Notes: generated from the sequence alone by a model not told the origin. A DNA stretch of 64,000 bases from a virus (IMGVR_UViG_3300046817_000369); one strand, 5' to 3'. Shown: positions 11,272 through 33,147, counted from the stretch's first letter. Made by a program: numbers and translations.

Positions 11272-11658
11272 ATGCCGCTACCGACCCTTTTCGCCGCACA
11301 AACGCTGTCCACCGGGGCGCAACTCGACGCCAATTTCGCCGCCCTCGGCCAGATCGCGGTGATCCCCGGCACGATGGCCGGCACTAACGCCATCACGTTC
11401 ACGCCGCTCGCCACGGCGCCCGCGGTGCCCGCCTACGCCAATTACATGATGTTCGGCGGCGTGGCGGGCGGGACGAACACGGGCGCCACCACGGCCACGG
11501 TGGCGGGCCTTGGCACGTTGTCGGTGTTCAAGGGATCGGCGGCGGGGCCGGTGGCGCTCGCGGCGGGCAACATCTTCGTGGGGAACTTCATCATCCTGGT
11601 TTACAATTCGGCGCTGTCCGGCGGCTCGGGCGGCTTTCAACTGGTGTCGGTGTACTGA
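11272..11658 (+). CDS. Small virion/tail protein
   Basis: MPLPTLFAAQT...AQLDANFAAL resembles the N-termini of tail fibre/needle proteins. Confidence 0.45.
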   Translation: MPLPTLFAAQTLSTGAQLDANFAALGQIAVIPGTMAGTNAITFTPLATAPAVPAYANYMMFGGVAGGTNTGATTATVAGLGTLSVFKGSAAGPVALAAGNIFVGNFIILVYNSALSGGSGGFQLVSVY

Positions 11659-14833: not shown

Positions 14834-17800
14834 GCGAAACACTCGAACGACCCAACGCGCAGGCGGTCGCCGCCGATCTTGGTGTCGGCAGCGCGGATAC
14901 GGGCAACGATCCCGACGAAATGCGGAAGAAGGCGCTGGCTGACGCACCGCGTCAGGCACTCGCGCTGAATGTGCCGCCGGTTCCGCCGGTCAGGCCGCGA
15001 TCCGATCGCAATGGAATCGCGGTGCCGACACCAAACGCCGCGGCGCCAAGAACCACCGACGCCGCTCCGGCGGACCCGAACGATCCCTGGCAGTCCTCGC
15101 CCATAATGGTGAGCCTGAAGGGCATTCTGATCCCTGGCGAGGGCGCGGGCGGTGATCCAACGGCCCGCAATCCGATCTCAGGGGCGCGCGGCACGTTTCA
15201 GTTCATGCACGACACTTTCGTTCCGCTGATGAAAAAGAACCATCCCGAGGAAACCCGCGGCAAGAGCGACGCGGAAATCTGGGCGATGGCGGACATCGAT
15301 AAGGTCAACAGCCGCGAGGCCGCCGAACTCGCGCACGACAACATGATCCAGATGCAAAAGGCTGGCGTGCAGATCACACCGCAAACGCTCGCCGGGGCGC
15401 ACCGTCTGGGCGCGGGCGGCATCATCGCCGTGCTGAAAGCCGATCCGAACACGCCCATGAGCGCCATCGTGCCCGCCGCCTTCTCGCAGGGCGGCAACAT
15501 GGACATCCACGACCTGACGGCGGCGCAGTTTCTCGCCAAACCTTACCCCGGTGGGGGTGGAGGCGGTGGGGGCGACCCAACCGGGCAGAACGCTTCCTGG
15601 CAACGGATGCAGCAAAACTTCCAGCAGGCCCAGGAGGCCATGCGGGAGATAACCCAGGACTATCGCAAGGATCGTGATCGCGTGCGCGATCTGGCCTCGC
15701 GCTACAAGCCGTTCGAGCCGACGCCCGCCCCAAGGCCGCCTGAAGTCGATCCGATGCAATCGTTCGGCGGCATCGCCTCGATCTTCGTGGCACTCGCCGC
15801 CGGCCTGTCCAGGACACCCGCCGTGGCGGCGATGAACGGCCTCGCCGGCGTGATCGACGGCGCGCGGGAGAAGGATTGGACCAAGTACGCGGCGAACTAC
15901 AAAGCGTGGAAGGACAACTCGGAATACGCTTACAAGGCGCATGAAGAGTACTCCAAGGATATCAACGAAGCCATGGAAATGATGACCAAGGACGTGAACC
16001 TTGGTGAAGCCATGCTGAAGGCGACGTTGGCCATCGGTGGTCAATACGAGAAGGATATTCAGGAATGGCGTGAGCGTCCGCTGGATTTCCAGATCAAGCA
16101 GGACGCGGCGGTGAAGGCCCGCCAGGAGATGCAGAAGCGTCAGGAAGACATTGACGACGACGTGCAGCTTCGCGGCCTGAATGGTCAACGAGACGCGGCG
16201 CGTGAGCAGTTCACCGCGGCACAGGCGACCAACGATCTGGTGAAGGTCGCCGAGGCGCAAAAGCACCTGACCGACGCGGAAGCCGATGTCGAGCGGAAAC
16301 TGACCGACATCGAGAAGCGCAAGGCCGCGCAACTGGGCGGACGGTCACGTGGCACGGGCGGCGTGATGGATGCCGCGAAACTGAGAATTTACGAACAGTG
16401 GGTCAAGGACAACCCCGACGCGACGGCGGAGCAGAAATCGGCGTTCTTCAACAATGTGATGGGTAAGGAAGATCCTGGGGAAAGAACCCGCATTCGTCAA
16501 CAAGAAGCCGATACCAGGGCAGATCGCGCCAAAGCCGACGCGGATTACAAGGAGAAGATGGCCGCGCTCGGTCAGGACAAGCGAACAGATTCGCGTCAGC
16601 TCGCGGAATCACGCATTGCCGCCGCCAAGGAGTTTCATCAACAGAACGTCGAACTGGCGGTCAAGAAACTTGATCAAAATGCCTCGCAATTCGATCGGAA
16701 AGAGAACGAAAAGGAGAAGCACGACCGCTTCCTTGAAGCCATATCCAACGACAAGGTGCTGAACGACGCGGAAAAGGCCCGCCTGAAACGGGAAGAGGAT
16801 ATTCGCTGGCACGATATGTCGGATGCGCGTGGTTGGGGCGTGATCAAATCACGCGAGCAGATCGCCAAAGAAGGCAACGATCTGAAACGTGAACATGAAG
16901 CCGATTGGGTCAAACTCGGCAACGACAAGACCGCTACGACTAAGGAGATCGCGGACAAGCGGATTGAATCCGCCGACAAATATCATGCTTCTCAGGTGGA
17001 ACTGAAACTTCAGGGGATGCAACTGACGGACGAGCGTCAGAAGGAAACCGCGCGCCACAATCTCAGAGAGGAAGAAATCAGGCAGGACAAACTGCTGAAC
17101 GATGTCGAGAAGAACTCTTTGGTCCTGGAAGAGAGCAAGCGGTGGCATGACCTGTCCAACGCCCGTGGCTGGGGCGGTATCGAACAACGTGATCGCTCTG
17201 GTGCCGCGCGCAACGCCACCACGGTTCAGGTCGCGCAAATGCATGGCGAGTTCGGTGCCGCGCACGATGCTCGCGTCGCCGTTATTCAGGCGGACAATCG
17301 TCTGAGCAGAGAACAGAAAGACGCGGCGATCCTTGCCGAACGCAAGCGCAAAGCGGAGGTCGATGAAGCGTTCCGCGTTGACAAGCAAGGCACCAGCAAG
17401 GCCGCCATCGAAAAGGAGCAATGGGAGGACGCCAAGGGCGTCGCGGAACAGCGGCTTCGGTCCAAGGGGCAAGACCCGAGTCCGGAAGAGGTCGGCGTGG
17501 AAGCAAAACGGGTTCTCGCGGAATCAGGCCGTTTCCCTCCAAAAATTTCGCTTTCGGACGCTACGGTAGCGGAACGAGCGACGGAAATCTACGCCGAGGC
17601 ACCGGAAGGCTCCATGACGCCATCGCAGGCACGGATGCAGGCGATGCACGAAGTCGCGGACGCCAAAAAGGTCGAGCGCACCACACTCGCCATGGAAACC
17701 GCGCGTAAAGTCCAACTTGATATCGCGCGTGCTCATGAGGGAGACCCTGAATGGACTCCTGGCAAGATCGCCATCGCGGCCATGCAGGAAATATCCAGGC

Positions 17801-18843
17801 ACGGGAACCAGGCGCTGAAGCTGGAAGAGTTCGATGCCGTGGTTCAGGATGTGAAGAACGATCATCTGGGTGATCCGTCATGGACACCGGGAAAGATTGT
17901 ACGCGAGGCCAACCGGCAGATCACGGAATCGCACCAGCGGGCGACATCGGCGAACGTGAACAAACAGGTCTATGAGGACGTGCTAAAGGACGTGCAGGCC
18001 GATCCAAAGTTCGCCAATCAGCCGCGTGGCGCGCAGGACATCGAGACCATCCATCGCATGGCCGACGCGCACCGCCAGACGCCGCCGACCCTGAACGACG
18101 CTGCTGCCGATATGGAGGCGAAGCAGTTCCTGATGACCGGGCAGATGCCGTCCATGGGCATCGGCGGTCTCGGCGCTCGCACGCAAATCCTCAACCGCGC
18201 CGCTGAGATCGCCATGGAAACCGGCCACACGATCCAGGATTACATCGTTGGACGGGCCACGCTGAAGGCGGACGCCGGGGCGTTGTCGCAGATCACCAAG
18301 ATCGCGTCCGCCGTCGATGCGTTTGAGAAGACCGCGCTGAAGAACATGGACGTGGCCGAGGCGTTGATGAACAAGGGTGCCGGCACCGCCGCCGGTCCCG
18401 TGGTGAACCGTTGGTTGCAGCGGGGCCGCTATGGCATTGGCGACAAGGACGTGGCGGAGTTCGACACCGCGATGGGCGCCATCCAGGGCGAATATGCCAA
18501 GATCATCTCGGGCGGTTCCGCCTCCATCGCGGCTTCGCCGGAAGGCGCGCGGTTGGAAGCGCAGAAATGGTTGGACGCGATGCAGTCGCCCGCCGCCATT
18601 CGCGGCCAGTTCGCCGTGGCGCGGCGCGACATGCAAAATCGGATTACGTCGCTGCGCGAGGAAGAGTCGATCTTGCGGAAACACATGCTCAGTCCGGTGG
18701 ACGCGGATAAGTCCGGTGGACCGACCGCGGCACCTCAACAGACCGGCGGGCTCCCAGAACGAAAAGACCTCGTGAAAAACAAACTGTATCCTGGTTACGG
18801 AACCTGGACCGGCACCGGGTTCCGCCCGGAGGCATCGCCCTGA
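14830..18843 (+). CDS. Large internal virion protein with N-terminal lysozyme-like/transglycosylase domain
   Basis: IPGEG...ARNPISGARGTFQFMHDTF...AHRLGAGG resembles SLT motifs; long coiled coil follows; 1337 aa. Confidence 0.7.
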   Translation: MSETLERPNAQAVAADLGVGSADTGNDPDEMRKKALADAPRQALALNVPPVPPVRPRSDRNGIAVPTPNAAAPRTTDAAPADPNDPWQSSPIMVSLKGILIPGEGAGGDPTARNPISGARGTFQFMHDTFVPLMKKNHPEETRGKSDAEIWAMADIDKVNSREAAELAHDNMIQMQKAGVQITPQTLAGAHRLGAGGIIAVLKADPNTPMSAIVPAAFSQGGNMDIHDLTAAQFLAKPYPGGGGGGGGDPTGQNASWQRMQQNFQQAQEAMREITQDYRKDRDRVRDLASRYKPFEPTPAPRPPEVDPMQSFGGIASIFVALAAGLSRTPAVAAMNGLAGVIDGAREKDWTKYAANYKAWKDNSEYAYKAHEEYSKDINEAMEMMTKDVNLGEAMLKATLAIGGQYEKDIQEWRERPLDFQIKQDAAVKARQEMQKRQEDIDDDVQLRGLNGQRDAAREQFTAAQATNDLVKVAEAQKHLTDAEADVERKLTDIEKRKAAQLGGRSRGTGGVMDAAKLRIYEQWVKDNPDATAEQKSAFFNNVMGKEDPGERTRIRQQEADTRADRAKADADYKEKMAALGQDKRTDSRQLAESRIAAAKEFHQQNVELAVKKLDQNASQFDRKENEKEKHDRFLEAISNDKVLNDAEKARLKREEDIRWHDMSDARGWGVIKSREQIAKEGNDLKREHEADWVKLGNDKTATTKEIADKRIESADKYHASQVELKLQGMQLTDERQKETARHNLREEEIRQDKLLNDVEKNSLVLEESKRWHDLSNARGWGGIEQRDRSGAARNATTVQVAQMHGEFGAAHDARVAVIQADNRLSREQKDAAILAERKRKAEVDEAFRVDKQGTSKAAIEKEQWEDAKGVAEQRLRSKGQDPSPEEVGVEAKRVLAESGRFPPKISLSDATVAERATEIYAEAPEGSMTPSQARMQAMHEVADAKKVERTTLAMETARKVQLDIARAHEGDPEWTPGKIAIAAMQEISRHGNQALKLEEFDAVVQDVKNDHLGDPSWTPGKIVREANRQITESHQRATSANVNKQVYEDVLKDVQADPKFANQPRGAQDIETIHRMADAHRQTPPTLNDAAADMEAKQFLMTGQMPSMGIGGLGARTQILNRAAEIAMETGHTIQDYIVGRATLKADAGALSQITKIASAVDAFEKTALKNMDVAEALMNKGAGTAAGPVVNRWLQRGRYGIGDKDVAEFDTAMGAIQGEYAKIISGGSASIAASPEGARLEAQKWLDAMQSPAAIRGQFAVARRDMQNRITSLREEESILRKHMLSPVDADKSGGPTAAPQQTGGLPERKDLVKNKLYPGYGTWTGTGFRPEASP

Positions 18844-20603
18844 TGGCTGAGAAGGAACTGTCTTACGAAGATGCCGTCGCTCGCGGGCCACAACAAGGCG
18901 AAGTGTCCTATGAGGACGCGGTGAAAGGTGGCTCAGCGGAGACACCGCCCGCCAAACCCATGTCTACCTTGGGCCGGTTCGCCACGGGCTTCCGCGATCC
19001 GATCACGGGCGTCGAGCAGATCGCCGAGCATATCCGGGGCAAGGGCAAGGAAGCCGACGAATACGTGCGCGACCGTGAGAAGCGGATCGCGGCCTCGACG
19101 CCGAACATCGCGCAAAGCAAGACCGTGCTGGATGATTTGGGGCGTGCTTCGCATACGCGAGAAGAGCCGCCGGGAGATAGTTCGCCCGATCCGGTGCGTG
19201 GCCTGGGAGAAATGGCGAATCCGTTGACCTGGGCCGGGAGTTGGTTGCGACCTGGATTGCGGACGGCGGTGGAACTGGGTGTCAGGCAGGGAGTGTTGTC
19301 ACCGACCACGGATGAGGATTTCGCCTCGGGCAAGACCAAACAGGTCGTTGGTGGTGCCGTGACAGGCGCGGCGACACAAGGCGCGGGACGAGTGTTGGGC
19401 GGTGCCATCCGGCCGGAAGTGCGTCCTGGCGTTCGCGCCTTGATGGACGAAGGCGTGCAACTCACGCCCGGTCAGATGGCCGGCGGGAACATGCGCGACA
19501 ATATGATGGGGAACATCGTCAAGCGGGCTGAGGAAGCGGCGAAAAGCATCCCCATTGTCGGATCGTTCATCCGCGCCTCGGAACGCCGTACGCTGGACAC
19601 CTTCAATCGCGCCACCGCCAATCAGGCCCTCGCTCCCATTGGTGTGAGGGTGCCCGAGACCTCCACGGGGCATATGATCATCGGCGATGGGCAACTGGCT
19701 TTGAGCGACGCTTACGATGCCGTGTTGCAAAGAATACACTTCGACATGAACCGCGATCCGCAGTTCGGTCCCGATGTTCAGAGTCTGTTCAATCTGACTC
19801 GTGGGTTGCCAGAAGCGCAACGCGGGCAGTTCGATTTCATTCTCAGGCAGCGCCTGGCGGGTCGATTGAGTCCGACCGGGACAATGAGCGGTGATACACT
19901 GAAGGGCGTGGAAAGCGAACTCGGGAACTTTGCTTCAAATTACCGCCATTCGTCTGACGCGGCGCAACGTCAGTTGGGGGAGGCGGTATCGGAGTTGCAG
20001 GCCATCGTTCGGGATTCACTCGCGCGCCAGCATCCGAACGAGGCGCAACGGTTGCAGGACATCAACACGGCCTATGCCATGTTCGCGCGGATTGAGGGCG
20101 CGGCGGCGCGGCGAGCGAGTTCCACGGGCGTTTTTACCCCAGGTGATTTGCTGGGCGCCATCAAAGCGCAGGACCGGACCGTTCGGAAACGCGGCTTCGC
20201 GCGTGGTGACGCGCTACTTCAGAACTGGGCGGAAACCGGCAACGACGTGATTGGCAATAAGCTACCGGACAGCGGCTCTCCGGAGCGGTTGTTATGGGAT
20301 GTCGGCAAGGGCGCTCTTGTTGGCGGCGGTGCGCATGTCGCGGGCGCCGGGCTTCCGGTTCTCGGCGCGATGGGTGTCGGTTCCACCATTTACAGCGAGC
20401 CGGCGCAACGCGCGCTGAACTGGGCCGTAAGGAATCGCTCGCCCTGGCGTGATACCGCCAAGGCGGCGATCAACCGCAATGCGGCCTATGCCGCGCCGCC
20501 TGTCGCCGCCGGAACATTGGCTGAACTCGGCGTGGGGCAAAATGACGAGCAAAGCCTGAGTGAGACCGCGCGATCTTTGCTGTCTTCCATGGGTTTGCAG
20601 TAA
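18843..20603 (+). CDS. Internal virion/ejection protein
   Basis: 586 aa helical protein with hydrophobic Gly-rich segments; third gene of the ejection trio. Confidence 0.55.
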   Translation: MAEKELSYEDAVARGPQQGEVSYEDAVKGGSAETPPAKPMSTLGRFATGFRDPITGVEQIAEHIRGKGKEADEYVRDREKRIAASTPNIAQSKTVLDDLGRASHTREEPPGDSSPDPVRGLGEMANPLTWAGSWLRPGLRTAVELGVRQGVLSPTTDEDFASGKTKQVVGGAVTGAATQGAGRVLGGAIRPEVRPGVRALMDEGVQLTPGQMAGGNMRDNMMGNIVKRAEEAAKSIPIVGSFIRASERRTLDTFNRATANQALAPIGVRVPETSTGHMIIGDGQLALSDAYDAVLQRIHFDMNRDPQFGPDVQSLFNLTRGLPEAQRGQFDFILRQRLAGRLSPTGTMSGDTLKGVESELGNFASNYRHSSDAAQRQLGEAVSELQAIVRDSLARQHPNEAQRLQDINTAYAMFARIEGAAARRASSTGVFTPGDLLGAIKAQDRTVRKRGFARGDALLQNWAETGNDVIGNKLPDSGSPERLLWDVGKGALVGGGAHVAGAGLPVLGAMGVGSTIYSEPAQRALNWAVRNRSPWRDTAKAAINRNAAYAAPPVAAGTLAELGVGQNDEQSLSETARSLLSSMGLQ

Positions 20604-20614
20604 CGGATCATGCC

Positions 20615-20851
20615 ATGAGCCAGCCCCCCGCCATCGAGACCAAGTTGACCCGCCTCGCCGAACAACTGCTGGACGACGCGATCACCGGCCAGGAAAGCGT
20701 GGACGCGGTGGACGTGTTCAAGGCGGTCAGCACCTGGCAACTCGCGATGAAGAAGGCCGCCGGGAAGGATGCACCTGACCCATCCGGCTCGTTCGCCGCC
20801 ATCCGCTCCGCGCTCACGCAGAAACCCGCCAACAAGGAAGAACTGCAATGA
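20615..20851 (+). CDS. Hypothetical protein
   Basis: 78 aa; coupled to downstream ORF. Confidence 0.55.
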   Translation: MSQPPAIETKLTRLAEQLLDDAITGQESVDAVDVFKAVSTWQLAMKKAAGKDAPDPSGSFAAIRSALTQKPANKEELQ

Positions 20852-20979
20852 AGAAGCCCATGCCGCCGCCCCCGAAGTCAGGCACGCGCTACGCCGCCGC
20901 CTCGCCGTCCCTGCCACGCAACGCCAAGGTCGAGGAACAGCACACCCGCAAGCCGCCGCTGAAGCACAAGGGCAAATGA
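20848..20979 (+). CDS. Basic Pro/Lys-rich 43 aa protein
   Basis: MKKPMPPPPKSG...KPPLKHKGK; ATGA overlaps at both ends. Confidence 0.5.
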   Translation: MKKPMPPPPKSGTRYAAASPSLPRNAKVEEQHTRKPPLKHKGK

Positions 20980-22943
20980 TGATCCGTCTGCTGATCGCGC
21001 TGTTGCTGCTGTCCGGCGCCGCATGGGGCCAACCCGTGCAGCAATCCAAGACCGTCACGCCGGGCCATGTTTCGACATGGACAACCACGGGCGTCATTCA
21101 GGATGGTGGCACGCCAGATGATCCCAAGGTGACAGGCGGCATTGGCGCGGTCAGCACGAACATGCGCTCCATCTGCACCCAGAACCGCACCAGCGGCGCG
21201 GTGTCGCAGATGTGTCTTGGCGTCACACCGGACGCGGGGATTCTGTCCCTGGAAAATCTGAGCGGTCCTGGCCTACCGCTACAATTCGACATCAACGGCG
21301 TACGCTATACGTTTCCGTTTCCCGCCGCGCCGATCAACGTGCCGTGGCTGGCCGCGACCTCGTTCGGCGTGGTGGCGGATGGTGTGACCTCGGACGATGT
21401 GGCGATGAAGAACGCTTTCGCCGCGTGTGCCGCTGGTGGGTATCAGTTGTTGTTGCCGCGGGGCCGTATTCTGATGACGGGTGCGGCGGGACCGATTACT
21501 CTTCAGAACTGTCATGTTGAAGGTACTGGGGTTGTCGCGGGTGAAACGGCCGTGGCTACCCAGGGAACCATGCTATTGCTGACCAGCACCACGGTCAAAC
21601 CATTCATTGCTGGGTCTAACTGGGCATGGTCGGGAACCAACTTCTTCTGGCCGAACCAAACCACGGGATCGGTGGTTTATCCGCCGCTGTTTAACATCCA
21701 AGCGGGATCGGGTGGCTGCAAGTGGAGGTTCTTCCACAACGTAGTCGTCAACGCTTACGATTTCCTGGATGACACACCTGGGACTGGATATTGTGAGGGT
21801 GAGTGGAATATTCACGACAATATACTTTATGTGATGCACTACGGGATTAGTTCCGCTGGGCAAGGAGACACCATATTCGTTAATAACAATCAGTTTTCCC
21901 CCGGCGCGTGGTTTAACGTGGACCCGGTTAATTCGCCGTCAGCATGGCTCGTTGCACGAGCGAACAACTGGATGTTTCATGTAAAGGGAGGAACCGCGTT
22001 CGCCTGGAACATCATCGCGAAAAGCAATGCGTTTTTCTCATGGCGCGGCGCGTTTCTGCTGGATGCGACAGCTACGGTCGGGATAAGTGATGTCAACATG
22101 ACGACTGATTTCGTGTCCACGTTGATTGACACCAGTTCTGGCGGCACGTGGGCGACGGGTAATACGTTCAGTGTCACTGGGAATTGTCAATATTTTGGGA
22201 CGGGTCATGCGCCGCCATGCTTTAACCTTGGTCTGGGAAGCATCGTCGAGGTCAGGGACAGCGTGTTCGTGGCAGCCGGCTCCGCTTTTGAAACAGCTGG
22301 GTCAAATGTGACATTGCAGAGTTCCAACATAACCGGGATTGGTGCTCAGAATGACGGAACTGAGTATTACGGCGTCCATTATACCGGAGGTTCCGGTGGC
22401 GAGCAAATCATCATTCAGGACAGCACGATCCAGGGGAACCTCTTGTCGAACAAAGCGCATGTTCATGGGATAACGACTGATGTCGCGCCTTCTCGCTTGG
22501 TCATCCAGAATAACCGAATGAATTTTTTGAACGAAGTCATCGACATTCAGACAGCGGCTACCACCATCATCACGGGGAACTGGGCGGTAGGCACGAATGG
22601 CGCGTCTTCGGTTCTGATCAGCGGAACAGGTGGTGTGCAGTACGCTAACAATGACTTTGACAAGGGGCCGAACGCTACTTTAGCTAATTGCGGTGGAGCA
22701 ACCGTGGCGCAAGGGGCGTTCTCGGGGTTCTTTACGGTCGGGCCGACTAATCCGACCACCACATGTGACATGACGTTCCCGTTTAACTTACTCGGTGCTG
22801 GTGGTGGCGCTTGTCAATTTGGGCCAAGTTCGAATACCAATTTATGGGCCAATGTAAGTGGCGCTCCGGCAACGTGGGCGATCCGATCCAGCGCCGATAT
22901 TCATTCTCAAAACGTGTTCTTCAATTGTAGGGCGGCGCAATGA
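20976..22943 (+). CDS. Tailspike-like beta-helix protein (pectate-lyase-3-like) with signal peptide
   Basis: True start ATG 20976: MMIRLLIALLLLSGAAWG|Q. FGVVADGVTSDDVAMKNAFAAC motif; 12 Cys. Confidence 0.75.
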   Translation: MMIRLLIALLLLSGAAWGQPVQQSKTVTPGHVSTWTTTGVIQDGGTPDDPKVTGGIGAVSTNMRSICTQNRTSGAVSQMCLGVTPDAGILSLENLSGPGLPLQFDINGVRYTFPFPAAPINVPWLAATSFGVVADGVTSDDVAMKNAFAACAAGGYQLLLPRGRILMTGAAGPITLQNCHVEGTGVVAGETAVATQGTMLLLTSTTVKPFIAGSNWAWSGTNFFWPNQTTGSVVYPPLFNIQAGSGGCKWRFFHNVVVNAYDFLDDTPGTGYCEGEWNIHDNILYVMHYGISSAGQGDTIFVNNNQFSPGAWFNVDPVNSPSAWLVARANNWMFHVKGGTAFAWNIIAKSNAFFSWRGAFLLDATATVGISDVNMTTDFVSTLIDTSSGGTWATGNTFSVTGNCQYFGTGHAPPCFNLGLGSIVEVRDSVFVAAGSAFETAGSNVTLQSSNITGIGAQNDGTEYYGVHYTGGSGGEQIIIQDSTIQGNLLSNKAHVHGITTDVAPSRLVIQNNRMNFLNEVIDIQTAATTIITGNWAVGTNGASSVLISGTGGVQYANNDFDKGPNATLANCGGATVAQGAFSGFFTVGPTNPTTTCDMTFPFNLLGAGGGACQFGPSSNTNLWANVSGAPATWAIRSSADIHSQNVFFNCRAAQ

Positions 22944-24883
22944 ACCGCATCCTCGCCACGCTGTTTGGCCTTGTCTTCACGGTCTCCGCGTCGGCGCAGT
23001 CCGTGCGGCAGTCGGGCACGGTCACACGCGGTCACATTCCCATGTGGGTGACGGACGGGGTGATCCAGGACGGCGGCACACCATCCACGCCGCTGATCAC
23101 CGGCGGCCTTGGGGTAGCGAACTCCAATCAACGCTCCATCTGCACACAGGACAGTCCCACGGGGGCGGTCTCACAGATTTGCCTTGGCTCGACACCGACT
23201 GGCACGTTCCTCACGTCCACCAGCCCATTCACCATTCAGGTTGATGGCGCCAATTTCCCCTTTCCAGCGGCTTTGCTACCGTTTCCATTCCTCGACGCGC
23301 GTACCTTTGGCGTGAAGGCCGATGGCGTCACATCCGACGACGTGGCGTTGAAGGCCGCGATCGATGCCTGTTCCGTCGCCGGCACGGCGCTCTACCTTCC
23401 GGCGGGCCTGATCCGGTTGACCGGGGCGGGGTCCACCACCAGCACGATCCAGAACTGCCACGTCATGGGCGCGGTGGGGTCGGCCGGCGGATCGAACGCC
23501 AACGCGCCAAGCATGGGCACGACGTTCCAGATCGAAAGCACCACCGTCAAGCCGTTCACATGCGGCTCCAGTTGGGCCGTGTCCTACGTGAACTTCTGGT
23601 ATCCCAATCAGACGGACGGCGTGACGGTCTATCCGCCGACGATCTCCGACAACGGGGCGACGCAGTGCCATCACGCGATGATGGATCATTTCACCGTGGT
23701 CAATGCCTATGAGTTTGTTGTCGAGACACCGAACCTGTCATGGGAAGCGTTCCAGTTCTCCGACTTCAACTGCTACGCCGTGAAGACCTGCTTCAGCCTG
23801 TCCAAGACCGGCGACAGCTTCAACTTCATCAATGCCCGCTTCACGCCGACGCCGTGGTTCGACATCTGCAACTCGACGGTGCCGTGCTTCGCCGCGATTT
23901 CCGCCGCCGCGCATGTCAACGCGATCTACCGCGCCACCGCGCAGGTCGGCCCAGGCGTCACGATCAACGTCGGATCGACGGAGGCGTTCGCGTGGCGGTA
24001 TGGGTTCAAGGTGGAAACCAACGGCCTGATCGAAGGATCGATCATGGACATCAACTGGGATAGCGTCGGAACGCTGATCGACGCGACAGCCAGTGGGGCG
24101 ACGTGGGGTATCAACAACGTGCTACGCGGTTTCACGCCGCAGTGCGGTATCCAGAACCTGGGCAGCGCGGCTGACGTGAGTAACTGTTTTCAGATGGGTC
24201 CGATATCCAGTCTGGTGCTGGATCACTTCAGTGGTGCCGCGTCCGGTGACTGGTTTCAGTCATCTGGCTCATCGCTCTACATGACCGGTGGCGTTCTGGG
24301 AGGCATTGGTCTGGGTGAAGCTGGCGTCGATCATTATTTCGTGAATGTGTCCGCCGGAAACGCCGTCGTTCATATCCGCGATGTCGAGATCGGATACGCG
24401 CAGTCGCTGAACGTCCACAGACACGCCATCAAGACCGATAATATCCAGGACTTCGTGCTTCAGAACAGTTCTTTCCGTGGGTTCAACGAAGTCGTGGCCG
24501 GGCCGTATCCGTCGCAGCAAGGTATTATCGCGGGGAACACGGGCGTTGGCATCGGCGCGCCAGCGGTAGCTCTGACCGGCGCCGGTTCGGTCCGATATCA
24601 ACTCAATCAGTGGGACAATCCGCCCTTGGCCCAAGTCAGCGCGTGCGGTGCGGGCGCGGTTATCAACGGCACGATCAACGGTGGAATTAACGTCGGTACG
24701 GCGGCGGGAACGACATGCACCGTGACCACGCCGATTGTCATGCCACTCATGAATTGCAGCTTTGGACTTGCTCTCGCGTTGCCGTTCTCTACCATCCAGT
24801 TGGGTGCTGGTGTTTGGAAGCTGACCGCGACGGGTGACATCAGCGGCACGCAAATCACATATCGATGTGGAGGCGATTCATAA
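22940..24883 (+). CDS. Second tailspike-like beta-helix protein with signal peptide
   Basis: MNRILATLFGLVFTVSASA|Q; FGVKADGVTSDDVALKAAIDAC; 16 Cys; paralogue of the upstream gene. Confidence 0.75.
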   Translation: MNRILATLFGLVFTVSASAQSVRQSGTVTRGHIPMWVTDGVIQDGGTPSTPLITGGLGVANSNQRSICTQDSPTGAVSQICLGSTPTGTFLTSTSPFTIQVDGANFPFPAALLPFPFLDARTFGVKADGVTSDDVALKAAIDACSVAGTALYLPAGLIRLTGAGSTTSTIQNCHVMGAVGSAGGSNANAPSMGTTFQIESTTVKPFTCGSSWAVSYVNFWYPNQTDGVTVYPPTISDNGATQCHHAMMDHFTVVNAYEFVVETPNLSWEAFQFSDFNCYAVKTCFSLSKTGDSFNFINARFTPTPWFDICNSTVPCFAAISAAAHVNAIYRATAQVGPGVTINVGSTEAFAWRYGFKVETNGLIEGSIMDINWDSVGTLIDATASGATWGINNVLRGFTPQCGIQNLGSAADVSNCFQMGPISSLVLDHFSGAASGDWFQSSGSSLYMTGGVLGGIGLGEAGVDHYFVNVSAGNAVVHIRDVEIGYAQSLNVHRHAIKTDNIQDFVLQNSSFRGFNEVVAGPYPSQQGIIAGNTGVGIGAPAVALTGAGSVRYQLNQWDNPPLAQVSACGAGAVINGTINGGINVGTAAGTTCTVTTPIVMPLMNCSFGLALALPFSTIQLGAGVWKLTATGDISGTQITYRCGGDS

Positions 24884-25167
24884 TGTCAGGCAACGCACGT
24901 CCGGTCTTCACACCAGTCGATAACGATCCCCCCGCCTCCAACGCCGCGGCGGCGGTCGGCACGCGAATGATCCTCGCGGGGCTGCACGCGCTCTCGCAGC
25001 GGGCGCTGACCGCCATCTCAGACCTGTTCAGCCTGATCCTGGTGGGCGCCGTGTGGCTGCTCGCGGACCGAGTGCTGGACAATCCCTCGCAGCTTCAGAT
25101 CGGCACGGTGTTCCTGTTCGCCGCCTTTTGCGTGCTGATCGACGTGATCCGGAGACGATCCAAATGA
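24883..25167 (+). CDS. Two-TM membrane protein
   Basis: DLFSLILVGAVWLLA and IGTVFLFAAFCVLIDVI followed by a basic RRRSK tail. Confidence 0.6.
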   Translation: MSGNARPVFTPVDNDPPASNAAAAVGTRMILAGLHALSQRALTAISDLFSLILVGAVWLLADRVLDNPSQLQIGTVFLFAAFCVLIDVIRRRSK

Positions 25168-26927
25168 GACTGATCCTCGCGTTACTTTTTCTGTTGGTGA
25201 CGAACCATGTGCTGGCGCAATCCAGTAACGCCGTCTTGCAGCAATATGATCATGACAAGTCATCGCAGGGACCGGATTACGCAAATCGGCAACTGGCCAA
25301 CACCGTTGGACAACTGAACTCGAACAATACGTTCGTATCTTCCGTCAACCGCGCGCCGACACCGAACGATGACACCGCGCACGGCCATCTGACGACTGAT
25401 CTCTGGCTCAATCCCTTGGATGGTCAGGTGTACAACATGGCGGATGGAACCGCTGGCCTGGCAAGTTGGGTGAAAATGATCGTTCCCGTCACACCGGGTG
25501 ATGCTGGCGGCACACCATTGGTGAGTTATGGGGTTTGTCGGGTTGTTGGCGCTTATGTAGGGAATTTGTTTACCGTTACCAGAACGAGCGACTCAACCAC
25601 GCAAGCGGCACCGCAGAGCACGAATGGTTGCGCTGATCCCGCTCCGCTGGATACGTTCTGCGCGAATACGGTTTGCTTCATCTCGACACTGAACGATCAG
25701 AGCGGCAATGCCTTTGATTGCGTGGGCACGGCGGCCAATGGCCCTCAGTGGATGCCGAACATTGTCATCAACGGACAGCGCGCGATACGCTTCCCTTCCG
25801 TTCCTCATACCATTGGTTCACTGACGACCGTCGCCAAACTTTGCACGGCGGAGGGCGTCACGAGTTGGAGCACGAGTTCTTATTCGATCGTATTCGCGGG
25901 GCGAGTGTCACTTTCGGCCGGCCCCGCGTCGCTATTTACTGATAGCCCCGCGTCCGCTGGTTTCAGTACCGCCGGAAATAACCATGTCGCCGCGATCTTT
26001 GGTAGTGGCGGCATCGCGCCACAACTCGCGATACCTGTCACACCCATTACCCTTGGGTTCACCACGATAGGAGGTGTCGGCGGCGCGAAACTTTGGGTAG
26101 GCAACGATTTCGCGGTCGCGAATACAGTGGCTCTGGGAACAAAAACTGGACTTATCCTCGGAACAGCGTCCACTCAATATCAGAGGATGGATCTTCTGTC
26201 ATTCACACTCTATGCTACACCCCTGACTGACGCGCAAATGCTGAACGTAAGAACATCAGTGGCGGGTCAGTGGAAAATCCCGCCACAGTGTTGTGATTTC
26301 ATCGTATCGGTACATGGCGACAGTCTCAATACCGGAGATGGCTCCGTTACTCAGGTTGGGTATCCGAACCGAGCCATCGAATTACAAAACACTCCTGTTA
26401 AAATGTATAATTTTAGCACATTTGGTAATAATCTTGTAGGAAATGGTGGAATCCTGGCGCTCGCCACAACCGACATGAACCTTATCTGGCGTTCCAACGC
26501 GCGTCTCATGCTTGAGATTATCGAGGGAGGCGCGAACGATATTCGGGCCGGGATTCTGACATCCACGCTGATTGACGGAATACGCGCATGGAATCCGACG
26601 TTTAAGCTAAATCGTCCCAACCTGAAAGTCATGTACGCCACGACACCTTTGCAGTCTAATACGTTGGCCAATCTTGGTTGGTTGGACCAGGCGCATAGCT
26701 TCAATGACATCATCGCCAGGAATTTTAATATATTGATCAATAGTGGCGGTCTTGGTGGCGATTTCCTGATGAATTTGTGGGCTAATCCGTTGGTCGGCCA
26801 GGGCAACTACACCACAAGTGCGTTCAACAGCCTGACATGCTCACTGGATGGTGGTCATATGACCGATTTGTGCCAGGGGCAACTCTCTGGAACAGCGGCG
26901 GGCGCGATCATGGGGGCACTCCAATGA
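25164..26927 (+). CDS. Signal-peptide protein with ConA/LamG-like lectin domain and C-terminal SGNH esterase
   Basis: MRLILALLFLLVTNHVLA|Q. SGNH blocks HGDSLNTG, GGANDI and DGGH. Central STLNDQSGNAF resembles arabinofuranosidase-B/LamG-like domains. Confidence 0.7.
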   Translation: MRLILALLFLLVTNHVLAQSSNAVLQQYDHDKSSQGPDYANRQLANTVGQLNSNNTFVSSVNRAPTPNDDTAHGHLTTDLWLNPLDGQVYNMADGTAGLASWVKMIVPVTPGDAGGTPLVSYGVCRVVGAYVGNLFTVTRTSDSTTQAAPQSTNGCADPAPLDTFCANTVCFISTLNDQSGNAFDCVGTAANGPQWMPNIVINGQRAIRFPSVPHTIGSLTTVAKLCTAEGVTSWSTSSYSIVFAGRVSLSAGPASLFTDSPASAGFSTAGNNHVAAIFGSGGIAPQLAIPVTPITLGFTTIGGVGGAKLWVGNDFAVANTVALGTKTGLILGTASTQYQRMDLLSFTLYATPLTDAQMLNVRTSVAGQWKIPPQCCDFIVSVHGDSLNTGDGSVTQVGYPNRAIELQNTPVKMYNFSTFGNNLVGNGGILALATTDMNLIWRSNARLMLEIIEGGANDIRAGILTSTLIDGIRAWNPTFKLNRPNLKVMYATTPLQSNTLANLGWLDQAHSFNDIIARNFNILINSGGLGGDFLMNLWANPLVGQGNYTTSAFNSLTCSLDGGHMTDLCQGQLSGTAAGAIMGALQ

Positions 26928-27847
26928 AACACTGGCTTCTCGCGCTCGGGTTGCTCTTGCCGGCCTCGGCGCTGGCCGCTGAATCGGACACCTATTGGCT
27001 CGGTGGCACGAGCAGCACGGGCGTTCCGATCTTCATTCCGGTCTCGCCCACCAATCCCATGCCCGTGACCGGAACGGGGTCGGGCACGCCGATCACCATC
27101 CAAGGCTCCGCCGTTATCAGCGCCGGCAACTCGACCACCACGCCGCTCGCGGGAGGCGCCACCTTCACCGGCACGGCGGTGGATATCAGCACGTTCAGTC
27201 AGGTCCAGGTTTACGTTAAATCGGATCAGGCCTCGGCGGTGGGCGGTGTGCAACTGGAGTTTAGCCCGGACGGGACTACCTGGGGCGATACGTCTGTTTA
27301 CGATTTCACGCCCGGCAGCACGACGAACGCAGATCAGTCCTACAACGTGGGATCGCGCGCCAAGTTCTTCCGGTTCGTCTACACCAACGGCGCCACGCCG
27401 CAGGGATCGGTGCTGATATCGACGCTGTTGCGCGGTCAGAACGCCTTGGGTGATTTCGTGGATATGTCGGTGCCGCCATCGCAGTTCGGCCACGGCCCGG
27501 TCACGTCGTCCGTCATCAGCGGCACGGGCGGCAAGGGGCCGGTCTTGCTCCATTCCAGCGCGACGGGGCGGCTTGATGGGGTGATTACCTGGATCGCGCC
27601 GACCTTTGGTTCGGTGACGGTGAGCGGGGTCGTCGTCGCGGCGGGGCCGACTGTTTCCATTATCACCAACACGACGGGCGGGGCGCGGCTTACCCTGAAC
27701 GTCTTCGGTGGCGCGGCGGTCGATAACGTCGGCATTCCGCTTCAACCCGGTGACCGGGCGACGATCCAAGGTCAACCGTCCGGCACGGCGATCAACGGCA
27801 TTTGCAGTTCCGGGACATGCACCTTCACCGCGCAGTCGGGGAGTTAG
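26924..27847 (+). CDS. Signal-peptide beta-sandwich protein
   Basis: ATG 26924: MKHWLLALGLLLPASALA|A. STTTPLAGGATFTG and VQLEFSPDGTTW are jelly-roll-like. Confidence 0.65.
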   Translation: MKHWLLALGLLLPASALAAESDTYWLGGTSSTGVPIFIPVSPTNPMPVTGTGSGTPITIQGSAVISAGNSTTTPLAGGATFTGTAVDISTFSQVQVYVKSDQASAVGGVQLEFSPDGTTWGDTSVYDFTPGSTTNADQSYNVGSRAKFFRFVYTNGATPQGSVLISTLLRGQNALGDFVDMSVPPSQFGHGPVTSSVISGTGGKGPVLLHSSATGRLDGVITWIAPTFGSVTVSGVVVAAGPTVSIITNTTGGARLTLNVFGGAAVDNVGIPLQPGDRATIQGQPSGTAINGICSSGTCTFTAQSGS

Positions 27848-27851
27848 GCAC

Positions 27852-28466
27852 ATGCTGAAACGCCTGATTCTCGCTTCGGCTCTGGTATTTCCCTCGGTCG
27901 TGCTGGCGCAATCGGCCGTCATGATCACGCCCGGACCGAATCCGGGCGCCAGCAAGCATCTCGTATCGTCGGTTCTCACCAAAATCGCGGGCGCGGGCAC
28001 CTACACCGGCGCGACATCGGCGGCACCGGAGGCGGTATGTCTGTTCGCCTCCGTCACCGCTTGCGCTCCCATGACCATGACGGCCTCGCTGAACCCGCTT
28101 GTCACCGGGAACATCACCGGCATATCCCTGACCAAATCAACCACGGGCGCGACGGCGGCTACGTTCCGCGTGCATGTGTTCCAGGCCGCGCCAACCTTGA
28201 CGGGCATCTTCAACACGACCGTCTACTTGACGCCGATCGCGGACCTCGCGAGCGCCGCCTATCTGGGTTCGTGGGAGTGCGCCACGCAGATCGTCAACAG
28301 TGACAACAGCTATTACGAGTGTTCGCCCAATCGTCCGGCGGGTAACCTCGCGTTCAATCTGACGGATGGAACGCTGCGGTTCGTTCTGGTGGCGACGGGG
28401 GCTTATGTGTCCGGGTCTTCTGAGACGTTCCAGGTGTCGGCTGATATCCTGACGAGCGTTCCGTGA
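27852..28466 (+). CDS. Signal-peptide protein
   Basis: ATG 27852: MLKRLILASALVFPSVVLA|QSAVMITP. Confidence 0.65.
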   Translation: MLKRLILASALVFPSVVLAQSAVMITPGPNPGASKHLVSSVLTKIAGAGTYTGATSAAPEAVCLFASVTACAPMTMTASLNPLVTGNITGISLTKSTTGATAATFRVHVFQAAPTLTGIFNTTVYLTPIADLASAAYLGSWECATQIVNSDNSYYECSPNRPAGNLAFNLTDGTLRFVLVATGAYVSGSSETFQVSADILTSVP

Positions 28467-29500
28467 GGCTGCGTTTTCTTCTCGCGCTGATCGCGGGGGC
28501 TCTCGCCGCGACACCCGTCTGGGCGCTAACGCCACGCCAAAAGCTATTGCTGTTGTTGCCTCACGCGCCGCCCTCGCTCGACCTGAATTTCATCTCAGGC
28601 GTGCTCGACCCGCGCATCACGTTCACGCGAGCAGCGGGACCGGCGACCTACTTCGACGTGGCGGGGACGCTGCAAACGGCGGGGACCAATGTTCCGCGAT
28701 TTGACTACGACCCGGTGACCCACGCGGCGAAGGGACTGCTGATCGAGGAGTCGCGGATCAACCTGTATCTCAATAGCGCCACGTTGGGGACGCAGGGCGT
28801 TACCACCGCGAATATCCCTTATACAGTTTCATTTTATGGCACCGGGACCATCACTTTCACCGGCACATGTTCTGGCGCCACCAGCCTCGTCGGCGCGGGG
28901 GCCTTCCCCGCGCGAGCCTCCAAGACCTTCACCCCGACCGCCGGAACCTGCACCAGCACGATCTCCGGCAGCGTCCTGGATGCTAATTTTGAGGCGGGAG
29001 CGTTCGCGACCAGTTACATCACAACGACGGGGGCAACTGGCACTCGCGCGGCTGATGTGGCGACGATGCCAATTGGACAGTGGTTCAATCTGGCCTCTGG
29101 CACATACTTCGGGGAATTTGCATTGAACGCCGCAACGGGTCGCGTCGTTCAGTTGGGCGACGGGAACAACGCGGATATTTTGTTTTTACAACCCGCGAAC
29201 GTCGCCAGCGGAAATACGTTCTCCGCGACGGTCAACCAGGGGCGGATCAATACCGGTGCGGCTTTTGTCGCTGGCGTGGTGAACAAGACCGCTTATGCGG
29301 TCAATAATAAAATCCGAGCGTTGATCGCGAATGGAGGGACGATTGTGGCATCCACCACGGCTGCTCGGCCGGTCGGTCCGACGACTTTGTATATCGGTAT
29401 TGATAACTCCAGTACATCACAAGCCAATGGCTACCTGCGCCGCATCCGCTACTGGTCGCGCGTGTTGTCCAACGCCGAACTTCAGCAGGTGACGCGATGA
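28463..29500 (+). CDS. Signal-peptide tail-fibre-like protein with LamG/ConA-like domain
   Basis: MRLRFLLALIAGALAATPVWA|L; ITFTRA...PRFDYDPVTHAAKGLLIEESRIN...FATSYITT is a common phage fibre module. Confidence 0.7.
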   Translation: MRLRFLLALIAGALAATPVWALTPRQKLLLLLPHAPPSLDLNFISGVLDPRITFTRAAGPATYFDVAGTLQTAGTNVPRFDYDPVTHAAKGLLIEESRINLYLNSATLGTQGVTTANIPYTVSFYGTGTITFTGTCSGATSLVGAGAFPARASKTFTPTAGTCTSTISGSVLDANFEAGAFATSYITTTGATGTRAADVATMPIGQWFNLASGTYFGEFALNAATGRVVQLGDGNNADILFLQPANVASGNTFSATVNQGRINTGAAFVAGVVNKTAYAVNNKIRALIANGGTIVASTTAARPVGPTTLYIGIDNSSTSQANGYLRRIRYWSRVLSNAELQQVTR

Positions 29501-30366
29501 GCGTCAAACGTGAGGTTATGATGAAGTGGTTCTTCGCGGCGGTTCTCGCGCGCCTTCTCCTTCTCGCCGCGCTTTCCTTGCCATCGGCCGCGCTCGCGCA
29601 ATCGGCGGTCATGATCACGCCCGCGTCACCGGGCCGGTGGGTCACATCCACGTTCGTCGCCAATAACACCTATACCGCCGAGGCGGACGTTACCCAGGTA
29701 TTGATCACCGCCATCGGCCCCGGCAGCGGCGGTGGCGGCGGTCAGGCCGTCGCGTCAACGGCGGGTGGCGGTGGTTCCGGCAGCGGAGACTGGATCATGA
29801 ATTATCCGGTCGCGGTCACGCCAGGGCAGGTTCTGACGCTCACGGTGCCGGCGGGTGGCCTCTCAGGTCCGGCGGGATCGAATGGAGGCGGCGCCGGTGG
29901 GCCGACGACAATTTCCGGTCTGACGGCACCGTTATCCACGATAAGCCTCGGCGCCGGTCAAGTCGGGAACGTGGGCGTCGGCGGCGTCGGCGGCGCGGGC
30001 GGAAACGGCGGCGGCACGTTTGGAGGGGCGGGTGGCATAGGCGGTGCGGCCGGCACGGCCGGCGCTTGTTTCGCGAATAGCTGCACGGGATCGGGTGGCG
30101 GTGGTGGTGGCGCGACAGCGGGCGCGGCTGGACTTGGTGCCATTCTGCCCTCATTGCCGTTCCTGCGAGGTGGTGGCGGTGGAACGGGCGGCGGCGGCTC
30201 TGGCGGCGTTTCCATTTATGGTCAACCGCAAGCCGGCGGCGCGCAGAACGTGGCTTGTTCCGGCAACGCGGCGCCAGGGGCGGGCGGGTCCGGCGGCGGT
30301 TCCAACGCGGCGGGATGCGCCGGTGGCACGGGGCGGGTGGATATCACGCGCTGGACGCGGTTCTGA
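29497..30366 (+). CDS. Signal-peptide Gly-rich tail-fibre-like protein
   Basis: MKWFFAAVLARLLLLAALSLPSAALA|QSAVMITP; IGPGSGGGGG...AGGSGGGSNAAG...GRVDI glycine-rich domain. Confidence 0.65.
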   Translation: MSVKREVMMKWFFAAVLARLLLLAALSLPSAALAQSAVMITPASPGRWVTSTFVANNTYTAEADVTQVLITAIGPGSGGGGGQAVASTAGGGGSGSGDWIMNYPVAVTPGQVLTLTVPAGGLSGPAGSNGGGAGGPTTISGLTAPLSTISLGAGQVGNVGVGGVGGAGGNGGGTFGGAGGIGGAAGTAGACFANSCTGSGGGGGGATAGAAGLGAILPSLPFLRGGGGGTGGGGSGGVSIYGQPQAGGAQNVACSGNAAPGAGGSGGGSNAAGCAGGTGRVDITRWTRF

Positions 30367-30499: not shown

Positions 30500-31153
30500 A
30501 TGTCTGACGAAGGAGAACGGCCCGGTGTCGGAATGCCGAGGCCGCGCTGGGATCGCGAGCGGAGGGTCAGCCAGCAATCAGCGGACGACGCGGTGATCCG
30601 GTCGTGGGTCACGGTGCTGATGGCCTTCGTGTGCAAGCACTGGCCATGGGTATCGGCGACGTTGACCACCGGGCTTCTGGCGCTGCTTTACAATGTCTAC
30701 GTCCTGGGCGGCATGGCGCAGATGGTCAACAGCAACATCGACCGGCTCGTGGCCATGTCCATCGCCGTCGAGGATATGAAGCTGCACGTGCGCGGCCTGG
30801 AGGTGCATCACGACGACCTCACGGCGCGGGTCGAGACGCTGGAACGGTCAGGCAGCCCGGTGGTGCAGGCCTTGCGAGTGCAGGTGGAATCCCTGGCGAT
30901 CGGGTATCACGAGTTGTATCCGATGGTGAGCAAAGACCTGCACGACCTGATCGCGCGGATCGAGGGGTTGCAGGAACACAGCAAGGGCGACGTTGAGCGG
31001 TTCGATGGGGTCAACCGGCGGATCGGCGGCGTCGAGGACAGAAGCAACGCGGCGGACAATGAGATACGAACCCGTATGAACCTGTTCCAACAGCGCATGG
31101 AACTGCTGTCCGACCGGGTCGGGGGAACGGGAACGCGGCCGGGGGCGCCATGA
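30500..31153 (+). CDS. Single-TM coiled-coil protein
   Basis: Hydrophobic WPWVSATLTTGLLALLYNVYVLGG followed by long heptad repeats. Confidence 0.6.
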   Translation: MSDEGERPGVGMPRPRWDRERRVSQQSADDAVIRSWVTVLMAFVCKHWPWVSATLTTGLLALLYNVYVLGGMAQMVNSNIDRLVAMSIAVEDMKLHVRGLEVHHDDLTARVETLERSGSPVVQALRVQVESLAIGYHELYPMVSKDLHDLIARIEGLQEHSKGDVERFDGVNRRIGGVEDRSNAADNEIRTRMNLFQQRMELLSDRVGGTGTRPGAP

Positions 31154-31174: not shown

Positions 31175-31417
31175 ATGGGATGCTTTTCGGCGGCGTGGTT
31201 GGTTCAGTTCATCGTCTGGCTGATCGTGGTCTGTGCCATCGTGGCGATCGGGCGCCGCGTGCTTCCCATTGTTCTTGGTTGGTTGGGCGTGGCCGGTGAT
31301 GTCGTCATGCAGGTCATCAACATCATACTTATCGCCATAGTGCTGATCTGGTTGGTTTGGCTGTGTTACGATCTCCTGACCTGTTCCGGCGGCATCGGCC
31401 TGCCGGGCCGGCGATGA
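31175..31417 (+). CDS. Two-TM small membrane protein, holin candidate
   Basis: Two hydrophobic helices, 80 aa. Function inferred only from size and position. Confidence 0.55.
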   Translation: MGCFSAAWLVQFIVWLIVVCAIVAIGRRVLPIVLGWLGVAGDVVMQVINIILIAIVLIWLVWLCYDLLTCSGGIGLPGRR

Positions 31418-32493: not shown

Positions 32494-32687
32494 GCGAAGA
32501 AGACCTGGCCGCGTTGCTGCGCGAGCAGGGATGTCGGATGTTGGACATGCGGGACACACTGGAAGCGGCGGCGCGCCAGTTCGACTCTTATGCGATTTAT
32601 CACGCGAAAAAGGTGCCGCCCGATCTGGACAAGGCGACCGCCAATGCGGAATGGGCTCGGCGTTGCCGCCAATGGTCAGACGCCTGA
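32490..32687 (+). CDS. Hypothetical protein
   Basis: GTG start overlapping upstream stop. Confidence 0.45.
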   Translation: MSEEDLAALLREQGCRMLDMRDTLEAAARQFDSYAIYHAKKVPPDLDKATANAEWARRCRQWSDA

Positions 32688-32736
32688 GTATATCCCGTTC
32701 CTGTTCCCGCCGCGCGCCGTGTGGCATGGTGCGGCA

Positions 32737-33147
32737 ATGAGCCGCCAACCCGATCGCGAGCATGACCGAGACGACCGATTCGTGGCCCGCGTGGTCGCCG
32801 CGATCAAGGCGGAACTCGATCAGGTTCATGCCGAACTGCACGCCGCGCACGCGAAACTTGACTATGATCACACCTTAATCGAGGAGTTGAAAACCATGTC
32901 CGCTACTCTCCAATCCGACCTCGCGGCCCAGAGCGCGGCCGTTCAGGCGCTTGCCACTGAAGTCAGTGATGGTCTCGCGGCCAATGCTGCCGCCATCCAG
33001 GCGTTGAAGGATCAGATCGCGGCCGGTAGCCCGGTTACAGCGGCAGACCTGACAACCCTTGAGGGCAACACCGCTGCCGTTCAGGCTGCCACCACGGCGT
33101 TGCAGGCGGCGCTCAACCCTGCGCCGGTTACTCCACCGACCCCCTGA
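32737..33147 (+). CDS. Ala-rich coiled-coil protein with a second in-frame start at 32896
   Basis: LQSDLAAQSAAVQALATEV...; GAGGAG RBS inside the ORF before ATG 32896. Confidence 0.6.
   Translation: MSRQPDREHDRDDRFVARVVAAIKAELDQVHAELHAAHAKLDYDHTLIEELKTMSATLQSDLAAQSAAVQALATEVSDGLAANAAAIQALKDQIAAGSPVTAADLTTLEGNTAAVQAATTALQAALNPAPVTPPTP

Follow-up and report, generated by a model that had tools for sequence, protein, structure and literature searches.

Seven tailspike- or fibre-like genes (g1 to g7) occupy positions 20976-30366 on the + strand of a 64,000-nt stretch of viral DNA (IMGVR_UViG_3300046817_000369; the whole stretch is called the window below), and each of them begins with a segment that reads as a cleavable Sec signal peptide. 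Tailed phages normally attach their spikes in the cytoplasm via N-terminal head-binding domains, and the question raised by this locus is why such proteins should carry leaders and where the proteins go. The original prediction held that they are exported and are then either loaded on particles or act as free secreted factors. From the analysis described here, export of the seven proteins across the inner membrane by Sec appears highly probable, and the two proposed fates remain the leading readings, with loading on the tail tentatively placed first and a free existence, also possible, placed second.

The seven ORFs (open reading frames) and the cleavage motifs proposed for them were all confirmed from the sequence. 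The leader comprises 18 aa ending in AWG↓Q in g1 (20976..22943), 19 aa ending in ASA↓Q in g2 (22940..24883), 18 aa ending in VLA↓Q in g3 (25164..26927), 18 aa ending in ALA↓A in g4 (26924..27847), 19 aa ending in VLA↓Q in g5 (27852..28466) and 21 aa ending in VWA↓L in g6 (28463..29500), the arrow marking the predicted cleavage point. In g7 (29497..30366) the leader ends in ALA↓Q and may start at 29497 or at 29518, the ATGA-coupled ATG at 29497 being as good as the later one and merely giving a longer n-region. A gap of 124 nt precedes g1; each of the other six starts overlaps or adjoins the stop codon of the gene before it in an ATGA or GTGA arrangement. Homologues, including the copies in two related phage loci (L002 and L003), start at the same residue; the corrected starts were accepted because homologues share them and because of this translational coupling. 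In-frame extensions upstream of the ORFs look like off-frame sequence, that of g1, which reaches 20769, being Arg/Pro-rich. No internal terminator above chance level was found in the block 20976-30366.

Leaders were scored with a crude rule-based pattern of our own, and not with SignalP or another trained predictor. They are 18-27 residues long and have one or two basic residues (K/R) near the N-terminus, h-regions of 12-16 uncharged hydrophobic residues, in most cases a Pro or Gly between -4 and -6, and small side chains at -3 and -1; by this rule, n-, h- and c-regions of the Sec type cleaved by signal peptidase I were present in 7/7. No lipobox (no Cys at +1) and no twin-arginine motif was found in the seven leaders, g6 having R-L-R only. 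With the strict rule, a single one of the 174 other window ORFs of at least 100 aa scored, and this ORF lies in a non-coding frame. When the in-frame start could be chosen freely, 3 of 47 control genes scored, versus all seven here, and none of the upstream head, adaptor, nozzle and ejection proteins scored convincingly. A chance origin of the leader pattern is excluded under this rule. The residues at +1 are Q, Q, Q, A, Q, L and Q for g1 to g7. Gln is thus predicted at +1 in five of the seven, as it is in about half of the homologues, and the mature proteins would be likely to carry an N-terminal pyroglutamate.

In homologues the form of the leader is kept and its sequence is not, which bears out the conservation expected of true signal peptides. 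A leader is present in 18 of the 20 full-length g2 homologues (27-81% identical), each time with a different sequence; leader identity to g2 is 11-53%, versus 52-82% for the domain that follows in relatives that share the N-terminal domain of g2. All spike homologues from six other phage backbones also carry a leader, as does the g3 homologue P0023, and the leader of the g1 homologue P0002 is almost identical to that of g1. Leaderless homologues leave no room for a leader, and their first residue is the one that predicted cleavage would expose: the leaderless spike of the related locus L011 starts M-SVRQRNPVTPNH, compared with ASA↓QSVRQSGTVTPGH in leader-bearing spikes.

Mature Cys counts are even in all seven proteins (12, 16, 10, 2, 4, 2 and 4 for g1 to g7), and g1 and g2 have close sequential Cys pairs in common. 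Among 20 leader-bearing fibre-module proteins from related loci, 18 have an even, non-zero number of Cys, one has an odd number and one has none. When the seven window proteins were combined with the Cys-containing leader-bearing proteins of related loci, 25 even counts were obtained against one odd count (binomial p = 4e-7). Leaderless fibre-like neighbours gave three even, six odd and one zero count, and the remaining Cys-containing window genes were split about 20 to 19 by parity. The same association was seen within the family of the g4 core domain, for which 142 representatives were compared: the 18 leader-bearing members are shorter and Cys-richer (1.29% Cys, 16/18 even) than the 124 leaderless members (0.28% Cys; 46 even, 33 zero, 45 odd), and the even-Cys split between leader-bearing and leaderless members gave a Fisher p of 4.6e-5. 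Leaderless copies of the N-terminal domain of g1 and g2 (in L002 and L011) are without the Cys pair of that domain. Four independent lines, namely conservation of leader form, Cys parity, the g4 family and the leaderless homologues, thus make it well supported that the leaders are real export signals. Export is supported because the form of the leader is kept, Cys parity tracks the leader, and leaderless homologues begin at the cleavage point, and the export proposed in the original prediction stands as far as sequence can show.

These observations also bear on two readings in which the leaders are not cleaved by signal peptidase. Cytoplasmic assembly is the textbook route, an earlier in-frame start exists in four of the seven ORFs, and g7, a fifth case, offers two candidates; the N-terminal segments could on these grounds be docking or oligomerization helices, segments removed by a phage protease, or mis-called starts, none of them serving export. 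The starts are nevertheless confirmed by homologues and by translational coupling, a docking helix should conserve its sequence and here only a physico-chemical pattern is conserved, and the strict link of the leader with Cys enrichment and even Cys numbers would be left unexplained, so that this reading is the least probable of those considered. Uncleaved signal anchors, which would tether the proteins on the periplasmic face of the membrane until depolarization by the logic of SAR (signal-anchor-release) endolysins, are also improbable. Such endolysins, which are Sec-targeted, membrane-held and released by holin, are established (PMC6116005), and a conserved holin-like protein with two transmembrane segments and no leader (TM100; 24865..25167, + strand) is encoded inside the module. 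On the other side, the small residues at -1 and -3 in 7/7 and the helix breaker that precedes them in most predict cleavage, the hydrophobic cores are rich in Leu, Ile and Val, unlike the weakly hydrophobic, Gly/Ala/Ser-rich SAR domains, and the leaderless homologues begin at the predicted cleavage point.

The seven mature bodies are receptor-binding-type modules, that is tailspikes, a lectin-esterase and fibres, and the description given of them at the outset (two beta-helix spikes, a lectin plus SGNH esterase, a LamG-type fibre and a Gly-rich fibre) was upheld. In g1 and g2, which are paralogous (36% identical), the leader is followed by an N-domain of ~95 aa, called type I here, and by a right-handed beta-helix. 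Pfam assigned g2 to Pect-lyase_RHGA_epim. In the AF2 model of g2 (predicted local distance difference test, pLDDT, 80.8) residues 113-647 form the beta-helix, and the top PDB matches were the Sf6, HK620, Pam1 and K2-2 tailspikes together with alginate epimerases. The type I N-domain was modelled unreliably in the g2 monomer (pLDDT <50), and it matched no Pfam family at E values up to 1. A concanavalin-like lectin/glucanase part of g3 (Pfam ArabFuran-catal at residues 114-186) precedes an SGNH (GDSL) esterase, whose motifs were located as GDS at 385, GGAND (GxND) at 455-459 and DGGH (DxxH) at 562-565; no Pfam SGNH model matched g3 below E 0.01, and only two relatives of g3 were present in IMG/VR.

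In g4 the leader is followed by a conserved mature N-terminus, ESDTYWLGGTSS, and by a lectin-like core. The core (residues 61-175) was modelled as one confident beta-sandwich (pLDDT >90) and has 2980 relatives, often repeated within large phage proteins. Its best PDB match was XepA (E 1e-5, template modelling score ~0.3), followed by lectins and carbohydrate-binding modules, and the Atlas also gave a lead to XepA. The 185-aa body of g5 has no assigned fold and no close relatives in IMG/VR, its Atlas look-alikes being viral hypothetical proteins of 178-195 aa. The g6 protein was matched by the tail protein family phrog_5939 (E 1.9e-47, profile positions 340-461 of 801) and, in its C-terminal domain, by Pfam Laminin_G_3; its residues 42-180 resemble tail fibres of cultured T5-like, Synechococcus, Ralstonia and Limnohabitans phages, and the homologue in Limnohabitans phage DC31, encoded 3' of the tape measure gene, is leaderless and has one Cys. 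The fibre domain of g7 corresponds to Pfam Gly_rich_2 (residues 49-276). An exported endolysin was also considered and ruled out, as no peptidoglycan hydrolase domain (muramidase, amidase or peptidase) was found in any of the seven proteins in Pfam, PHROGs or NCBIfam.

How these bodies are combined with their N-terminal modules was followed across related phages. The window shares its backbone with L002 (= L007), L003 and L011, with identities of 73% for the capsid (L011), 51-58% for the adaptors and nozzle (L011) and 30-55% for the ejection proteins (L002, L003, L011), and in these three loci the same N-modules are joined to different C-terminal parts. The type I module (QSVxQSGTVTPGH..W..GVIQDGGTP) occurs in the window on g1 and g2 only, an ExDxYWLGGTSS module follows the leader of g4, and QSAVMITP...GRW is found on g7 and in part on g5. 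A 145-aa protein of L002 and a 642-aa protein of L003 carry the N-terminal motif of g4. The g7 homologue in L002 is 64% identical and has a different leader, and the g3 homologue in L002 is 26% identical and leaderless. By comparison, L001, L004-L006, L008 and L009 share the beta-helix only, always with a leader and with other N-modules (e.g. ACPGxPxxCG); the L001 beta-helix is 77% identical and stands behind an unrelated N-module and leader. The type I N-module is better conserved than the beta-helix and is restricted to the SU10-like backbone of the window, L002, L003 and L011. This is an architecture like that of virion-anchored receptor-binding proteins, in which, to judge from these comparisons, the anchor follows the tail and the tip follows the host.

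In g5 and g7 a 46-nt stretch (27888-27933 and 29578-29623) is 87% identical and runs from the last part of the leader into the codons that open the mature protein (LAQSAVMITP), and the two bodies are unrelated beyond it; this stretch may be a recombination joint for leader or module swaps. L005 (IMGVR_UViG_3300027824_000009) has an unrelated backbone and encodes five consecutive leader-bearing ORFs at 17367-21422, of which four are complete, with 2, 4, 6 and 4 mature Cys, and the fifth ends at the contig edge; elsewhere in L005 a leader-bearing spike lies beside leaderless spike-like genes. TM100, which is holin-like in form with its two hydrophobic segments and basic C-terminus (RRRSK), also occurs in L002 (11956-12246) and L003 (8942-9262). 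Its last 64 residues are 97% identical to those of the L002 copy, with many synonymous differences in the DNA, and its neighbours are 39-49% identical.

The fate that we favour can be set out as follows. Late in infection, precursors of the seven proteins would cross the inner membrane via Sec, and signal peptidase I would cleave them at the AxA site, mostly leaving Gln as the first residue. The proteins would then fold in the periplasm with every Cys paired into a disulfide, and at least g1 and g2 would remain host-recognition proteins of the virion, as probably would most of the other five. DNA-filled particles with portal, adaptor and nozzle would meanwhile be assembled in the cytoplasm. 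On established knowledge such a route is workable: with canonical holins, very large inner-membrane lesions form while the outer membrane still holds. Particles and periplasmic proteins would briefly share one confined space. At lysis such lesions would merge the two compartments, particles would first meet the periplasmic pool, and the processed N-terminal modules would dock on the tail. The likely gain would be oxidatively folded, very stable fibres suited to life in soil. Taken as a whole, this sequence of export, periplasmic maturation and loading at lysis falls somewhat short of an even chance on present sequence evidence.

Several findings speak for loading. Virion tail proteins of cultured phages are among the homologues of these bodies, and the genes lie in a late operon after those of the ejection proteins with ATGA/GTGA coupling. 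The N-module is specific to the backbone while the beta-helix moves between backbones. In L011 a leaderless type I spike is encoded directly after the nozzle and p130 genes, and its N-terminus, M-SVRQ, equals the processed N-terminus of leader-bearing spikes, one of which, with the same N-domain, is also encoded in L011. No other variable receptor-binding candidate was found in the window, only a conserved 128-aa protein. In the virion of SU10, fibre N-termini contact adaptor and nozzle (PMC9509320). A complex prediction with two copies of the 310-aa SU10-type adaptor of the window and three of g2 residues 20-118 gave a score of 0.00, which weighs neither way. In the cultured Cellulophaga phage phi18:3 (Pachyviridae, NC_021794; 32891-38583) the Sec-type leaders of gp085, gp086 and gp087 end in SQ or AQ, and the record annotates the three proteins as virion structural or tail proteins 'based on experimental MS/MS proteomics' (tandem mass spectrometry); their N-terminal modules are common to 'tail fiber' and 'pectate lyase' PHROG families. 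Like the seven, they are consecutive tail-region proteins with Sec-type N-termini; they differ in that no sequence relationship to the seven was seen and the host is a Bacteroidota species. No paper discussing the leaders of gp085-gp087 was found in the literature.

Other points weigh against it. We know of no tailed phage that loads tail parts after export. The leaderless spike of L011 could occupy the docks before the leader-bearing one arrives, and envelope material that co-purified with phi18:3 particles could have entered their mass spectrometry data. In Agrobacterium phage Milano virion disulfides can form without export (PMC10811340), a precedent that leaves the association of leader and parity unexplained. 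Three further points also count in favour of the reading in which the seven are exported and never enter the virion, being fibre-module derivatives that act as accessory factors in the periplasm or after release. In the g4 and g6 families the members with a leader do not have the long N-terminal parts seen in those without one, which are presumably virion-bound. XepA, which gave the best match to the g4 core, is a late exported protein reported to be absent from PBSX particles (PMC6834076). In Xanthomonas phage PBR31 a lysis cassette encodes gp40, an SGNH esterase with a leader (PMC10975493).

Free factors of this kind could cut or de-acetylate surface polysaccharide, whether nascent or in the surroundings, aid lysis and egress, or block receptors against superinfection or against loss of progeny on debris. 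The leaders and the Cys parity count for them too, enzyme domains are present (the lyase/epimerase-like beta-helix and the SGNH esterase), most related phages also have leaderless fibre genes for the particle, and the seven-gene block, which sits between the ejection proteins and small membrane-protein genes, directly precedes the latter in what is the usual lysis position. However, no enzyme domain is present in the LamG and Gly-rich fibres, and binding proteins in free form would be competitors of the virion for its receptors. N-modules that go with the backbone and have diverged less than the catalytic parts fit a docking partner encoded by the phage, which free enzymes should not need, and the window has no leaderless variable fibre. 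Sec also ends in the periplasm and not at the cell surface, no type IX secretion C-terminal domain or other secretion tag was found, and late-operon timing is ill-suited to exclusion. The free-factor reading is accordingly regarded as possible, with about one chance in three as a rough guide, and loading at lysis is retained as the favoured one.

The window is a nearly complete genome of an uncultured short-tailed phage, with a GC content of 60% overall and of 58-66% across 2-kb windows. Its head and tail genes comprise those for a portal, an FkbM methyltransferase, a major capsid protein and two adaptor-like proteins, one with a Pfam SU10_adaptor domain, followed by a 534-aa protein at the nozzle position and the 128-aa small protein. 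The latter (p128; 11272-11658, + strand) is leaderless and Gly/Ala-rich, is encoded directly 3' of the nozzle gene, is 51% identical to its L011 counterpart (L011 7623-8015), and has a fibre-like N-terminus (..LDANFAALG..) and no family match; it may be a small tail fibre, a needle or an adaptor for fibres. The ejection-protein position is occupied by three big proteins of 647, 1337 and 586 aa, for which no Pfam or PHROG match was found and, in a single-sequence scan, no close relatives of the 586-aa protein. These three (window 12890-20603) contain no Cys, unlike the adjoining seven genes. PHROGs gave no endolysin or spanin family for the ORFs searched 3' of the fibre genes (30500-31153, 31175-31417 and 32590-33147).

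Among cultured phages no near-identical DNA or spike protein was found for the window, and its capsid is 32% identical to those of two phages from spring-water metagenomes, no cultured phage being close. DNA of the seven-gene region was detected in at least 17 soil or rhizosphere metagenome runs. The window primase had no relatives among the genome contigs searched, and in genomes of 185,579 species the spike family was found on one 3.9-kb contig (a Polyangia metagenome-assembled genome) that is itself phage-like. A Bacteroidota host was considered from the Gln at +1 in five of the seven proteins, as a 'Q-rule' for Gln at +1 after the signal peptide is described for Bacteroidetes (PMC10367356), and was set aside in view of the GC content and of the Shine-Dalgarno-like motifs that stand ahead of many uncoupled genes.

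Tailed-phage particles are taught as products of cytoplasmic self-assembly. In the boldest form of the favoured reading, to which we give the same guarded weight as to free factors, a widespread group of tailed phages, represented here by a soil podophage with SU10-like adaptors, would split virion assembly over two compartments, the entire host-recognition set being exported and fibre attachment becoming a post-export step dependent on Sec and Dsb of the host. If fibres and spikes do mature in the periplasm, host Sec, signal peptidase and Dsb would be phage dependency factors, recombinant receptor-binding proteins and depolymerases of this type would need periplasmic expression, and host-range prediction and virion classifiers that discard leader-bearing proteins as non-structural would err for these phages. 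If the proteins stay free, they would form a large unrecognized class of phage periplasmic glycan-binding or -processing factors built from fibre modules, with a bearing on exclusion, on egress from polysaccharide matrices and on soil carbon turnover. Either way, a leader combined with Cys parity offers a simple sequence rule for spotting exported phage proteins in metagenomes.

The locus had been put forward as the best candidate for an undescribed system. In the literature searches no description of Sec leaders on the fibre or spike set of a tailed phage was found, and only endolysins, spanins, filamentous-phage coat proteins, cell-encoded tailspike-like enzymes and leader-bearing prophage carbohydrate-active enzymes were returned; that part of the claim holds, and it is qualified by two partial precedents, the exported late protein XepA and the leader-bearing phi18:3 proteins annotated from MS/MS. 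Envelope-targeted proteins encoded in or near the tail-fibre region are familiar from T5 (Llp), phi80 and N15 (Cor) and lambda (Lom), where they serve exclusion or progeny protection. These are small lipoproteins or outer-membrane proteins unrelated to fibres, and the seven have no lipobox. Sec-exported and SAR endolysins (Lys44 of Oenococcus phage fOg44 and Lyz of phage P1) take the same Sec route before lysis and have a different body (PMC6116005), and PBR31 gp40 combines a leader with SGNH chemistry as g3 does (PMC10975493).

XepA of PBSX from Bacillus subtilis (PDB 6i56) is, like g4, an exported late-operon beta-sandwich protein, and its gene adjoins lysis genes (PMC6834076). It is reported to be cytotoxic and non-virion, forms a pentameric two-domain dumbbell and comes from a phage of a Gram-positive host; it and g4 are 17% identical over ~135-170 aligned columns, and the g4 family is common in large phage structural proteins. 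The fibres called MAT in Bdellovibrio (PMC10769870) and WceF of Pantoea (PMC7949094) resemble the seven in joining a tailspike or fibre fold to an export signal, and the MAT fibres also have a common N-terminal module ahead of variable tips (PMC10769870). Both are encoded by bacterial chromosomal genes, whereas the seven lie in a phage genome and bacterial genomes hardly ever carry a member of their family. The podovirus tailspikes (P22 gp9, Sf6, HK620) have the same right-handed beta-helix as g1 and g2, a conserved N-module, a swapped receptor part and a place in the late structural operon; they have no signal peptide and assemble in the cytoplasm, in contrast to the leaders and predicted full Cys pairing of the seven. 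Fibres of SU10 and T7 likewise dock through their N-termini. Exported phage late proteins and modular tailspikes are thus known kinds, and what may be categorically new, in the boldest reading and with the reserve already attached to it, is the assembly route.

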